A stretch of 51,703 bases of DNA, from assembly GCA_963605145.1 (NCBI GenBank), contig CAVCTP010000001.1, positions 1 to 51,703 of the forward strand, read 5' to 3'. The notes under the pieces are model-generated. The model saw only the letters and a program-made list of their open reading frames with translations, searched no databases and was not told where the DNA came from. Source of the stretch: Tannerellaceae bacterium (GTDB lineage Bacteria; Bacillota_I; Bacilli_A; Erysipelotrichales; Erysipelotrichaceae). Numbering within the stretch: the stretch's first letter is position 1; every line of letters starts with the position of its first letter. Position numbers and translations under genes: made by a program. Of the stretch, positions 24,948 through 34,864 are shown in pieces.

Positions 24948-25843
24948 TATCTAGTTAACCTCAAATACTTGCATACCGAAATGTAAGAACCAATAAAACC
25001 AACAACAATGCCAATTAATAATAAAGCTAAAGACAAATATAAAATATATGGAAATACGGGAATTAAAGATAATACACCAGCTAAAACACCACCTGATAAG
25101 TTATATAAACGATAATAACCATAAATAATTAAACCAATAGGAATAATAGAACCAATAACACCAATAATAATTCCTTCTACCAAGAATGGTGCTCTAATAT
25201 AACCATTTTTAGCGCCGACATTTCTCATGATGATAATTTCATCTTTTCTAGTAGCAATTGTAACTTTAATAGTGTTATAGATTAGATAGATTGCTAGTAA
25301 GACTAAAGCTAAAACAAATATAGCACCAGCCAATCTAGTTTCTTGTAGGATATTAATTAAACGATAGGTATTAGTACCACCATCTTCTACAGAAGATATG
25401 CCATTAATCTTACCGATATTGGTTTTGATAGTAGACATATTTGAACCTTCAGTTAAAGAAACAATATAAACATCATGGAAAGGATTATCTTCACGATATA
25501 ATTCAGAGAACTCTACCATATCAGGATATTGTTCATTATAATAATCAAATTCTTGATCCTTTGTACGATATTCAACAGATAAAACACCATCCATATTTTC
25601 TATTTGTTTTTGCATAGATTTTAATTGTGTTTGATCTGTAACATCATAATCAATCAAAGCAACTAAAGATATAGATTGTTCTATTTCTTGAGTTAAGAAA
25701 GCAACATTACTTACTAGGACCGCAAAAACACCAATCATCGTTAAAGTAATTGTTACCGCAGTAGCACTAGAAAAAGCCATCCCAAAGTGACGTCTAACAC
25801 CAATAAAGCCTTCTTTTATATGTCTAAAAAATCTTCTAAACAT
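24947..25843 (-). CDS. ftsX: Cell-division ABC transporter permease FtsX
   Basis: 4-TM FtsX topology with a large extracellular loop. I prefer the ATG at 25843 (SD GAAGGTGA) over the track's GTG at 25852. Confidence 0.85.
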   Translation of the reverse strand: MFRRFFRHIKEGFIGVRRHFGMAFSSATAVTITLTMIGVFAVLVSNVAFLTQEIEQSISLVALIDYDVTDQTQLKSMQKQIENMDGVLSVEYRTKDQEFDYYNEQYPDMVEFSELYREDNPFHDVYIVSLTEGSNMSTIKTNIGKINGISSVEDGGTNTYRLINILQETRLAGAIFVLALVLLAIYLIYNTIKVTIATRKDEIIIMRNVGAKNGYIRAPFLVEGIIIGVIGSIIPIGLIIYGYYRLYNLSGGVLAGVLSLIPVFPYILYLSLALLLIGIVVGFIGSYISVCKYLRLTR

Positions 25844-26603
25844 TTTCTTCACCTTCTATTTCATCATCTTGCTTTTCAATAGGTAAAGAATTAATGGTAT
25901 TTAAGAATTGTTCTTCATTTTCCTTATTATCTTTAATATATGGATGATCATGAGTTATATGACCTGACTCAATTGTGATAATCCTCTTTGGGTGATTTTT
26001 AACCATTACATTATCATGAGTAACAACTAAAATGGTTGTTTTTTCTTCTTCATTAATTCTTTCTAAAATGGTAATAATCTCATTAGTCATTGCGGGATCT
26101 AGATTACCAGTAGGTTCATCAGCAATTAAAATAGCTGGCTTTTTAGAAATAGCTCTAGCAATAGCTACTCTTTGCTTCATACCACCAGATAATTGTGAAG
26201 GATAGGCCTTAGCCTTATCTTCTAGACCAACAAGTTTTAAAACTTCTCTTACCCTTTTTCTAATCTTTTCTGTAGGCATATCTAGTATTTCTAAAGCATA
26301 TGCTACATTTTCATAAGCTGTCTTTTCAGGTAAAAGTTTATAATCTTGGAATACTACGCCAATCTTTCTTCTATATAAATATACCTTTGATTTTCTAAGT
26401 CTACCTACATCAACACCAGATACTAGTACTTTTCCACTAGTAGCAATCTCTTCACCATCTAGTAATTTAATTAATGTTGATTTGCCAGAACCAGTAGGCC
26501 CAATAATATAAGCAAACTCGCCATCTTGTATCTCTAAATTAATGTTGTGTAAAGCATTTGTACCGTTTTTATATGTCTTTGAAACATTTCTAAGTTCTAT
26601 CAT
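25836..26603 (-). CDS. ftsE: Cell-division ABC transporter ATPase FtsE
   Basis: Walker A GPTGSGKST, signature LSGGMKQR, Walker B ILIADEPT. Acidic C-terminal extension. Confidence 0.9.
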   Translation of the reverse strand: MIELRNVSKTYKNGTNALHNINLEIQDGEFAYIIGPTGSGKSTLIKLLDGEEIATSGKVLVSGVDVGRLRKSKVYLYRRKIGVVFQDYKLLPEKTAYENVAYALEILDMPTEKIRKRVREVLKLVGLEDKAKAYPSQLSGGMKQRVAIARAISKKPAILIADEPTGNLDPAMTNEIITILERINEEEKTTILVVTHDNVMVKNHPKRIITIESGHITHDHPYIKDNKENEEQFLNTINSLPIEKQDDEIEGEENV

Positions 26604-26664
26604 ATTTATAATTGTAGCATATCACCTTTCACATGAATCGAATATGAAATTATTGTGAATTAGA

Positions 26665-27657
26665 TTACAAATTAGCAAACATATCTTTTGCATATAATCC
26701 AATATCTCTAGGGGAATTCATATTATATTTTTCTTTTATCTTTATAAAATAATCACCAATTATCTGTTTATCGATAATTTTAATAGAGATAGCACCATCT
26801 GAAAGTTCTCCTCTAGTATTAATCCATGGAGATTCATTATGAGTAAAAATTTCTAAAACCTTTCCACTATAACAACAAATATTTCTAATTACACTATCTA
26901 AAATTGCTTTTTCCTGTGTTGTGAATATAGATGAATCAAATGAATCAACTTTCAAGATTGGATCAAAATGATAATTGGCATATCTACTATAAATATCTCT
27001 ATAAACCGGACCATGTGACCAAGCTTCACAATCTTCTTTAAATATAAAATTTCCATAAAAGGCATAATAAAATCCTTGAATATAATAAAGACTCTTTTGT
27101 AGTGCGAGTGGCGTAATATCCTCACATTGATTTAAAAGATAAGCAATAACTTCATTTATCTTTTCACTAGATTTTTCATTATTAATTAAAGTCCTAACAG
27201 CTTTTAAACTTTTTTCATAAGTCTGTTTAGAATTCAAACGTTCTTTATTTTCCTCTAAAATATTTAGATAATAAGTAGGCTCATTAAATAAACGATTTAA
27301 AATCTCAGAATATTGTCTAGTAGGTATATCTCCATCAGCATAACGAGTAAAGGTATGTTCTCCCCAACCTAAAAGTATTGATAATGGACGTTTACCAATG
27401 GCATAGCGCTTAGGAATTGATTGAATCTTTTCAAGAGAAACAATACCATTTTCTTTTCGATATACATCATAAAGTGCTTTTAGATTAAACTCACTAATTT
27501 CTTCTACATCTATATAGGCTCCACAATTAGCACACTTTGCCTGCTTTCCTATATAGTGATAATCAACACCACGAATTGTTCCAACCATTTCCTTTTCTTC
27601 AATAATATATTCAACATCATCTCTACATTCTTCACAAAATACTTTTCTTTCGTTCAT
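26665..27657 (-). CDS. Putative antitoxin: MqsA-like zinc ribbon plus HTH, fused to a Panacea (DUF4065, SocA/GepA-like) domain
   Basis: CEEC...CANC zinc ribbon. HTH-like LSILLGWGEHTFTRYADGDIPTRQYSEILNRL (compare MqsA, from memory: GGGVNAFSRYEKGNAQPHPSTIKLLRVL). Panacea-like ITPLALQKSLYYIQGFYYAFYGNFIFKEDCEAWSHGPVYRDIY. The true start is the ATG at 27657, 8 nt after SD GGAGG; the track's TTG start is part of that SD. Confidence 0.7.
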   Translation of the reverse strand: MNERKVFCEECRDDVEYIIEEKEMVGTIRGVDYHYIGKQAKCANCGAYIDVEEISEFNLKALYDVYRKENGIVSLEKIQSIPKRYAIGKRPLSILLGWGEHTFTRYADGDIPTRQYSEILNRLFNEPTYYLNILEENKERLNSKQTYEKSLKAVRTLINNEKSSEKINEVIAYLLNQCEDITPLALQKSLYYIQGFYYAFYGNFIFKEDCEAWSHGPVYRDIYSRYANYHFDPILKVDSFDSSIFTTQEKAILDSVIRNICCYSGKVLEIFTHNESPWINTRGELSDGAISIKIIDKQIIGDYFIKIKEKYNMNSPRDIGLYAKDMFANL

Positions 27658-27678
27658 AATATTTTCCTCCAAAAATTC

Positions 27679-28137
27679 TTATTTAAATAAATATTCAATA
27701 GGTTTATTTAACTTATGAAAAGAGACGACAATTGTTCTATTTCCATTTAGTCTTTCAATCACATTGAACTTGGTATATATATCAATCTTTTCTTTTTCTC
27801 CTAGAGCATTAAACATTTCAACTTGAGGAACAAAAACATAAAGAATTTCATGCTCATATCCTATTTTTGTATTTTGTAAAGTATGACAAAAATCTTCTAT
27901 AGAAATTTGCATTAATATTTCTTTTCTCTTCTTAGGATAAATATTGTATTCATTTATAAAATTAATATTCTCCTGCCTATTTTCATTCATTGAAATCTGA
28001 AATCGGCCAGTTTCAACACATTCTTTTATTTTCAAAAGAACACTTTCAATTTCTTCCCTAGTATAATTTTGATTGTAATGCGAATTAGTCACTTCTTTAA
28101 TGTCCTTTCGTATATTATTATACACTATATGTACCAT
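27679..28137 (-). CDS. MqsR-like toxin candidate (ribosome-independent mRNA interferase family) with an extra N-terminal segment of about 40 aa
   Basis: By-eye alignment to E. coli MqsR, recalled from memory: LLKIKECVETGRFQIS vs VKKLVNAGQVRTT; ISIEDFCHTLQN vs LSESDFYKSMTT; ILYVFVPQ vs QDVYRPR; IDIYTKFNV vs VYLKITV; IVVSFHKL vs LIVSFKEK. Toxin-first gene order, as in mqsRA. Confidence 0.6.
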   Translation of the reverse strand: MVHIVYNNIRKDIKEVTNSHYNQNYTREEIESVLLKIKECVETGRFQISMNENRQENINFINEYNIYPKKRKEILMQISIEDFCHTLQNTKIGYEHEILYVFVPQVEMFNALGEKEKIDIYTKFNVIERLNGNRTIVVSFHKLNKPIEYLFK

Positions 28138-28153
28138 TTGACAAGATTGAAAT

Positions 28154-28167
28154 GTACTAATTAGTAC
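28154..28167. promoter_or_regulatory. Perfect 14-bp palindrome GTACTAATTAGTAC; candidate operator of the toxin-antitoxin promoter
   Basis: Lies 16 nt upstream of the toxin ATG (28137) and directly downstream of a TATAAA/CATATA -10 candidate (28169-28176). A TGACA -35-like element sits at 28194-28198. Confidence 0.45.
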
Positions 28168-28299
28168 TTTTATATGTAACTAAAAGTTAAATTTGTCATA
28201 AATTTTTCTAAATTCATTCTTCAGTCAAAAAAGTAAAAAATTTTGCTTATTAAAAATATTAATATAAAATTAAGTTATACAAAAAAGGAGTTTTAAATT

Positions 28300-28623
28300 A
28301 TGAAACTAATACTTGCGATTATCTCAAATGATGATGCTAAAGCATGTACTTCAGCATTAAACAAAGCTTCTTATCATGTTACTAGACTTGCAACTACTGG
28401 TGGTTTCTTATCAGCTGGTAATACAACATTAATTATTGGTTGTGAAGACAAAGAAGTTGATAGAGCCATTGAAATCATCGGTTCTGAATCTCAAAGAAGA
28501 AAAGAAGCTGTACCTTCAGCTATGGCTGGTGAACTTGGTGGTCTTACAGTTTATCCAATCGAGGTTGAAGTTGGCGGTGCAACAATCTTTGTTTTAAATG
28601 TTGATCAATTTAAGAAACTATAA
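28300..28623 (+). CDS. darA: Cyclic-di-AMP receptor, PII-like (DarA/PstA, YaaQ family)
   Basis: MKLILAIISNDDA...HVTRLATTGGFLSAGNTTLIIG...GGATIFVLNVDQF. SD AAGGAG. Confidence 0.85.
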   Translation: MKLILAIISNDDAKACTSALNKASYHVTRLATTGGFLSAGNTTLIIGCEDKEVDRAIEIIGSESQRRKEAVPSAMAGELGGLTVYPIEVEVGGATIFVLNVDQFKKL

Positions 28624-34781: not shown

Positions 34782-34864
34782 GCACCAATGGCGGAATTGG
34801 CAGACGCGTATGATTCAGATTCATATGAGAAATCGTGCAGGTTCAAGTCCTGTTTGGTGCACCA
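34782..34864 (+). tRNA. tRNA-Leu (anticodon CAG), CCA encoded
   Basis: Hand-folded. Acceptor GCACCAA/TTGGTGC, D arm GCG-gaattggcaga-CGC, anticodon arm TATGA-TTCAGAT-TCATA, long variable arm, T arm GCAGG-TTCAAGT-CCTGT, discriminator A, CCA. Confidence 0.9.

Follow-up and report, generated by a model that had tools for sequence, protein, structure and literature searches.

The window analysed here is the whole stretch of 51,703 nucleotides at positions 1 to 51,703 of contig CAVCTP010000001.1, from a Tannerellaceae bacterium assembly (GCA_963605145.1) placed by GTDB in the Erysipelotrichaceae, and the subject of this work is a putative toxin-antitoxin (TA) operon on its minus strand. An earlier reading of the same stretch, made from the sequence alone and called here the sequence-only reading, had proposed that an MqsR-like toxin is paired with an antitoxin in which an MqsA-type zinc ribbon and a helix-turn-helix (HTH) domain are fused to a Panacea (DUF4065) domain. 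This observation is confirmed by the computational analysis that followed it, and the interpretation then attached to it is partly supported.

Genes of the locus and their start codons

Two open reading frames (ORFs) follow each other on the minus strand, one of 152 amino acids (28137..27679) for the toxin and one of 330 amino acids (27657..26665) for the antitoxin, whose ATG at 27657 starts 21 nt 3' of the toxin gene, with a GGAGG in the spacer. The coordinates of both ORFs, the 21-nt spacer and the toxin-first, mqsRA-like order are as the sequence-only reading had described them; the 152 amino acids taken there as the length of the toxin did not stand, the gene being better read from a GTG at 28092 as one of 137 codons. 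The features of the locus, listed 5' to 3' along the minus strand, are the following.

28154..28167, no strand assigned: operator-like palindrome GTACTAATTAGTAC, an instance of GYAYYAATTRRTRC, unique in the window (pattern search)
28139..28144, minus strand: -35 hexamer TTGTCA, part of the region's top-scoring sigma-70-like promoter (11/12, 16-nt spacer)
28117..28122, minus strand: -10 hexamer TATAAT of the same 11/12 promoter match, conserved across 77 loci
28103..28109, minus strand: toxin-gene Shine-Dalgarno-like element GAAAGGA, 10 nt upstream of GTG 28092 (from sequence)
27679..28092, minus strand: putative toxin gene, divergent MqsR family, 137 amino acids from GTG 28092 (the mechanical ORF reaches ATG 28137, 152 amino acids)
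27666..27670, minus strand: Shine-Dalgarno GGAGG of the antitoxin gene, 8 nt before ATG 27657 (from sequence)
27448..27657, minus strand: MqsA-type zinc-binding domain (ZBD; C8, C11, C42, C45) and connecting helix, antitoxin residues 1-70 (cysteines, TIGR03830, AF2, Foldseek)
27250..27447, minus strand: XRE-type HTH (MqsA C-terminal domain), antitoxin residues 71-136 (TIGR03830, PF15731, Foldseek)
27163..27249, minus strand: helical linker whose hinge, residues 162-164, is modelled with low confidence, antitoxin residues 137-165 (AF2 model)
26665..27162, minus strand: Panacea domain (DUF4065 / SocA_Panacea), antitoxin residues 166-330 and stop codon (PF13274, AF2)

GTG 28092 is the most likely point for translation of the toxin to begin. 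This codon is favoured by the lengths of the toxin homologues, more than 100 of which measure 136-137 amino acids and begin M-(T/N)-x-H-Y-N-Q-N-Y, a start whose equivalent in the window is GTG 28092; by the Shine-Dalgarno-like GAAAGGA in front of it; by the position of ATG 28137 inside the promoter, between the -35 (28144-28139) and -10 (28122-28117) hexamers of the best match; and by gene calls on six contigs of metagenome-assembled genomes (MAGs), which carry an identical antitoxin and a toxin region matching that of the window and on which 137 amino acids are also called. In a sister Erysipelotrichaceae species (locus L008, positions 2060-2085) the codons GCG GTT stand where the window has GTG 28092, there is no canonical start at that place, and the sole in-frame start of the toxin is an upstream ATG inside the predicted promoter. 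This codon change could reflect either the loss of toxin translation in that species or a different transcription start, and it keeps the 152-residue form, a reading that is probably too long, as a formal possibility. For the antitoxin, a start at TTG 27672 was rejected since its homologues measure 330-331 amino acids and the TTG overlaps the Shine-Dalgarno sequence. The GC content of the module (0.25-0.29) is similar to that of its surroundings, and the idea of a recent foreign insertion visible by composition was dropped.

Domains of the antitoxin and affinity of the toxin

The composite architecture of the antitoxin, ZBD-HTH-Panacea, is confirmed. The Panacea domain that had been noticed in its C-terminal half is matched by the Pfam model PF13274 (SocA_Panacea) at residues 186-278, with E 3.5e-17 and 63.8 bits against a gathering threshold of 25.7. 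The MqsA-type zinc ribbon and HTH, likewise read by eye beforehand, are covered by the NCBIfam model TIGR03830 (CxxCG_CxxCG_HTH, MqsA family) at residues 8-130 (E 4.6e-15, 123 of 127 model positions), and the two CxxC pairs seen in the N-terminus, C8/C11 and C42/C45, proved invariant in 34 homologues, a family in which the Panacea domain is conserved as strongly as the ZBD. Homologues of the antitoxin number about 2,000, and the 120 listed measure 329-337 amino acids, nearly all of them 330-331; PF13274 is precomputed on every one of these 120 and PF15731 (MqsA_antitoxin) on many of them, and some have 'type II TA system antitoxin MqsA family protein' as their NCBI name.

The AF2 model of the antitoxin (mean pLDDT 89) consists of a beta-rich region at residues 6-42, a helical HTH region at residues 52-136 and a compact domain at residues 166-328, joined by a helical linker with its hinge at residues 162-164. 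When this model was compared with the PDB by Foldseek, ranks 1-2 were taken by E. coli MqsA (3GN5 A and B, E 1.5e-4, probability 1.0), in an alignment covering 131 out of 132 residues; 3FMY, the C-terminal domain of MqsA, was superposed with a TM-score of 0.75 and an rmsd of 1.9 Å over 63 columns, and the C-terminal HTH domain of HigA2 reached a TM-score of 0.8. A phmmer search of the PDB sequences with the antitoxin gave no match, MqsA being recovered by the fold search only.

As for the toxin, we conclude from profile and gene-context evidence that it is presumably a divergent member of the MqsR family. The alignment to E. coli MqsR made by eye, block by block, in the sequence-only reading was recovered by hhalign, at first with a shallow alignment of close toxin homologues (A1) and at a level that is not significant (probability 0.2, E 0.29). 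An exhaustive profile search gave 577 clusters of relatives, and with a diverse alignment of 75 sequences (A2), made of the window toxin and 74 relatives of 27-56% identity to it, the match became significant, reaching 82% and E 1e-5 against E. coli MqsR taken as one sequence and 94.9% and E 4.5e-8 against an alignment of the MqsR family (A4, 36 sequences), over 89 columns in which MqsR 10-98 corresponds to toxin 19-130. The Pfam MqsR model PF15723 is matched by 17 of the 75 sequences of the diverse alignment (best E 3.5e-6), and any other Pfam family by at most one.

In the hhalign register, Y81 of MqsR corresponds to Y106 of the toxin, conserved in at least 90% of the 75 diverse relatives, and K83 to K108, invariant among them. 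Alignment of 31 toxin sequences shows 43 invariant columns, and Y106, K108, S124 and H126 are kept in the diverse relatives. The same register bears on the N-terminal extension of about 40 residues that had been ascribed to the toxin: with the GTG start only about nine extra residues are left, the rest of the length difference from MqsR being accounted for by insertions within the protein and by a short helix at its C-terminus. Most of the extension is thus artefactual, produced by the start codon and by the point at which the alignment by eye began.

The AF2 model of the toxin (pLDDT 84, pTM 0.79) starts with a1-b-a2-a3 and continues with an antiparallel sheet, an additional hairpin and a helix at the C-terminus, an order of helices and strands which we take to be that of MqsR. 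Its Foldseek matches in the PDB are weak and of NTF2-like or cystatin-like type only (E >= 0.02, TM-scores 0.3-0.4); a relationship to NTF2 was rejected, since such scores do not rise above noise and the profile comparisons favour MqsR. The comparison with BFVD gave one marginal and uninformative match, a phage protein annotated as 'HTH-type transcriptional regulator' (E 3.2e-4, TM-score 0.5). The family of the toxin is labelled 'hypothetical' wherever it is named and carries no precomputed Pfam domain, and PADLOC holds no defence-system model that recognises either the toxin or the antitoxin.

Promoter region and distribution of the pair

Relatives of the toxin were scanned in one genome per species, which gave 193 matched stretches, and 80 loci were kept, corresponding to 79 genome records (two loci come from one Suipraeoptans MAG). 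They belong mainly to Lachnospiraceae, Oscillospiraceae, Erysipelotrichaceae and Clostridium, with a few Bacteroidota MAGs. In 79 of the 80 loci the toxin gene is followed, after 15-48 nt, by a full-length homologue of the antitoxin, the remaining locus running off its contig end. The ftsE and pstA flanks of the window are present in only one of the 80, that of the sister Erysipelotrichaceae species (L008), and since the flanking genes are common to a single locus from another species, the pair appears to move as a unit and to behave as an autonomous, horizontally moving module.

The comparison of L008 with positions 25836-28623 of the window gives identities of 96% for FtsE, 99% for the PstA-like protein, 85% for the toxin and 91% for the antitoxin; the values of the last two lie below those of the flanks, so that the TA pair is diverging faster than its neighbours. 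Both genes are also carried by two Gardnerella loci (L010 and L012, toxin 73-74% identical) and by MAGs assigned to Prevotella, Bacteroidaceae and Phocaeicola (L011, L014 and L084). Across the Gardnerella and Bacteroidota MAG loci the toxin is 64-74% and the antitoxin 56-80% identical to those of the window, and these occurrences in Actinomycetota and Bacteroidota indicate cross-phylum horizontal transfer or, for the MAGs, bin contamination.

The promoter of the pair is conserved, with the consensus TTGACA-17-TATcAT in 77 related loci. The 14-bp palindrome GTACTAATTAGTAC of the sequence-only reading does exist, at 28154-28167, as a perfect repeat with adjacent arms that occurs once in the window; its attribution to the 5' untranslated region did not hold, the element lying 9 nt upstream of the -35 hexamer. 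Its general form, GYAYYAATTRRTRC, occurs without mismatch in 66 of 77 distinct upstream regions and with no more than one mismatch in 76 of them, always 4-9 nt (most often 7) before the -35 hexamer and in regions that are otherwise divergent, and exact matches number only 70 in the 577 kb of all fetched loci. On account of this phylogenetic footprint the palindrome is a strong operator candidate for an HTH dimer. The published PanA work (Kurata et al., 2022; Ernits et al., 2023) was found to hold no earlier description of the GYAYYAATTRRTRC operator and of this promoter architecture.

The base 5' of the -10 hexamer is a G in 68 of the 77 loci (window 28117-28123, L007-L086), and the resulting GTAT(C/A)AT resembles the operator half-site GYAYYAA. 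The promoter of E. coli mqsRA carries two palindromes, and by analogy GTAT(C/A)AT might offer the repressor a second contact that overlaps the -10 hexamer. The palindrome was also considered as a regulator of the divergent PstA-like gene at 28300, an explanation that was rejected because in the loci from other species it is the TA pair that the motif accompanies, and only one of them has that neighbour.

Relation to MqsR:PanA systems, alternatives and neighbouring genes

The Panacea domain and the PanA antitoxins were defined by Kurata et al. (2022, PNAS 119:e2102212119, PMC8832971), who listed 1,268 predicted PanTs, among which the recognised toxin domain met most often was MqsR-like (n=90), and found HTH N-terminal domains in 343 PanAs. 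In Dataset S1 of that work, pairs from Clostridium luticellarii DSM 29923 and Gardnerella vaginalis are placed in toxin cluster T2 with the order T|A, and this cluster includes toxins that CDD calls 'MqsR superfamily' (PMC8832971). The C. luticellarii entry, with its gap of 26 nt, matches our locus L060, whose toxin and antitoxin are 67% and 60% identical to those of the window. The species of the window itself is not included in Dataset S1, where the T2 orthologues are listed as predicted PanAT pairs; moreover, HTH alone is annotated in the T2 PanAs and the word 'zinc' is absent from the main text, whereas a ZBD is recognised here too (PMC8832971).

The sequence-only reading had known of no characterised example of this architecture, a statement that is contradicted both by these orthologues and by the ZBD-HTH-Panacea PanA:MqsR(D2) pairs of Bacillus fungorum and Lactobacillus rossiae (the latter WP_017263062.1 / WP_017263061.1) validated by Ernits et al. 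(2023, PNAS 120:e2305393120, PMC10440598). In the B. fungorum PanA, the ZBD or the ZBD-HTH part neutralises MqsR(D2), whereas Panacea or HTH-Panacea does not, and a Y97 substitution makes MqsR(D2) non-toxic; dimerisation through the HTH was predicted and Panacea was proposed as a sensor (PMC10440598). The window pair resembles the B. fungorum one (WP_099686063.1 / WP_099686064.1) as a toxin-first two-gene module with the same ZBD-HTH-Panacea order, and the boundaries are close, 1-71, to 174 and 175-349 in the PanA of 349 amino acids from B. fungorum versus about 1-70, to 165 and 166-330 in the window. Both toxins are enlarged relatives of MqsR, with Y97 as the catalytic tyrosine in B. fungorum and Y106 as the aligned candidate in the window. 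The likeness to the B. fungorum and L. rossiae pairs is an indirect one, drawn from the published constructs and from the T2 cluster, and the window toxin differs from the validated pairs in lying below the Pfam MqsR_toxin threshold. A search of the literature from 2023 onward gave nothing that alters this picture of ZBD-HTH-Panacea:MqsR pairs. The locus adds an ordinary case to a known family, the design of which was catalogued in 2022 and dissected experimentally in 2023.

We consider it likely that the locus is a chromosomal type II TA module of the published MqsR:PanA class. One sigma-70-type promoter would give a toxin-first bicistronic mRNA, the first product of which would be, by homology, a divergent RelE-like endoribonuclease of the MqsR family with 137 amino acids. 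The N-terminal MqsA-type four-cysteine ZBD would bind and neutralise this toxin, as shown for the B. fungorum homologue, and the central XRE-type HTH would dimerise and repress the operon through the conserved GYAYYAATTRRTRC just upstream of the -35 hexamer, as its conservation suggests. The C-terminal Panacea domain would be an accessory module and not the neutraliser, most likely a sensor or regulatory platform that governs when the toxin is set free, as might happen on phage infection, in line with the published hypothesis. The data give no support to the earlier suggestion that Panacea neutralises a second toxin encoded in trans.

Several results weigh against this assignment. The MqsR-like nature of the toxin, as the sequence-only reading had it, is borne out by the profile comparison and not by any direct match: the window toxin has no match to PF15723 even at E <= 1 and none to any NCBIfam model, nothing relevant to it was found among the PDB sequences by phmmer or by hmmsearch with the A1 and A2 profiles, and MqsR (3HI2) is not in the top 50 of the Foldseek comparison of its AF2 model with the PDB. 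The catalytic K56 and K96 of MqsR correspond to H70 and H126 of the toxin (the latter conserved in at least 90% of the diverse relatives), and Q68 of MqsR falls in an alignment gap with no aligned equivalent on the toxin side; given these differences, the chemistry and specificity of the toxin may differ from those of MqsR. The antitoxin, for its part, stays below the curated thresholds of both MqsA models, with 55.5 bits against a cut-off of 61.8 for TIGR03830 and 19.7 bits (E 1e-3, residues 40-114) against a cut-off of 30 for PF15731. Lastly, a Herbaspirillum MqsR:PanA pair was toxic, yet not rescued, in E. coli (PMC8832971).

Some of these results would also fit a protein that is no active toxin but a degenerate or co-opted relative of MqsR, or else a regulator, an alternative we hold to be improbable. 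It would account for a protein with no direct family match in which two catalytic lysines of MqsR are replaced by histidine, and for the GCG GTT at the conserved start position of L008; in addition, eight of the PanTs assayed were non-toxic in E. coli (PMC8832971). Such decay is hard to reconcile with the strong purifying conservation of the family, with its 43 invariant columns in 31 sequences and the retention of Y106, K108, S124 and H126, or with the strict co-occurrence with the antitoxin and an intact, conserved promoter and operator motif. Histidine, moreover, is a common catalytic residue in RNases of the RelE superfamily.

The part played by each half of the antitoxin could also be reversed, with Panacea neutralising the toxin and the MqsA-like N-terminal half acting only as a DNA-binding autoregulator. 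Stand-alone Panacea does neutralise directly elsewhere, as in the PanT(D11):PanA pair of Bartonella (PMC10440598), and its conservation in the antitoxin family, as strong as that of the ZBD, would agree with such a role. We find this quite improbable for the window, because in the sole dissected pair it is the ZBD alone that neutralises (PMC10440598) and because the four zinc ligands are invariant in the 34 homologues, as they should be in a ZBD that has retained the function it has in MqsA.

Finally, Panacea might serve as a proteolytic adaptor delivering the toxin to ClpXP, as in a type VI system of the SocA kind: SocA is the founding Panacea protein (PMC8832971) and the NCBIfam SocA_antitoxin model NF047745 shows weak similarity to antitoxin residues 169-250 (E 1.1e-10), but the 41.5 bits are far under the equivalog cut-off of 190 and the PanAs assayed neutralise without ClpXP or Lon, in stable complexes with their toxins (PMC8832971), which makes this option barely credible. 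Caulobacter SocA/SocB itself has only the Panacea domain in common with the window antitoxin, SocA having no ZBD-HTH part and SocB being a replication inhibitor that is degraded via ClpXP.

The MqsR:PanA assignment can also be set beside the E. coli MqsR/MqsA pair (YgiU/YgiT; 3HI2, 3GN5, 3FMY, 3O9X), which has the same toxin-first operon, four-cysteine ZBD and XRE-HTH fold, and a palindromic operator at the promoter, the one in the window being a candidate from sequence. The two differ in the antitoxin, 131 amino acids with no Panacea in E. coli versus 330 in the window, and in the toxin, 98 amino acids in E. coli versus 137 in the window, with insertions, a C-terminal helix and histidines in place of K56 and K96. 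The operators also differ in sequence, that of E. coli mqsRA being of the ACCT-N-AGGT type and that of the window family GYAYYAATTRRTRC.

Beyond annotation the significance of the locus is small, as the roles of the ZBD as neutraliser and of Panacea as accessory module have already been answered for the B. fungorum pair. To the annotation it adds a toxin subfamily that is invisible to the Pfam and NCBIfam models, a corrected toxin start, histidines in place of two catalytic lysines, and a conserved operator motif with its promoter architecture; the operator may be of use in reporter or EMSA work on what Panacea senses. A more speculative proposal, which we regard as doubtful, is that in this subfamily, widespread in gut Firmicutes, Panacea is a dedicated trigger sensor of a phage protein or of stress that allosterically frees a histidine-dependent MqsR-like RNase from the ZBD, as an abortive-infection defence, and that GYAYYAATTRRTRC together with H70 and H126 sets apart a functionally distinct branch of MqsR that cleaves with a specificity of its own.

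Around the operon, 61 nt (26604-26664) separate the stop codon of the antitoxin from the start of ftsE on the same strand, and no intrinsic terminator was predicted between 26400 and 28500; because of this short same-strand gap and the lack of a predicted terminator, transcription of the TA operon may read through into ftsEX. On the other side, a divergent gene (28300-28623, plus strand) encodes a protein of 107 amino acids of the cyclic-di-AMP receptor family PF06153, PstA/DarA-like, and a 162-nt intergenic region is common to it and to the TA promoter. At the Rfam gathering threshold, the sole match in the whole window is one tRNA gene at 34782-34861 on the plus strand.

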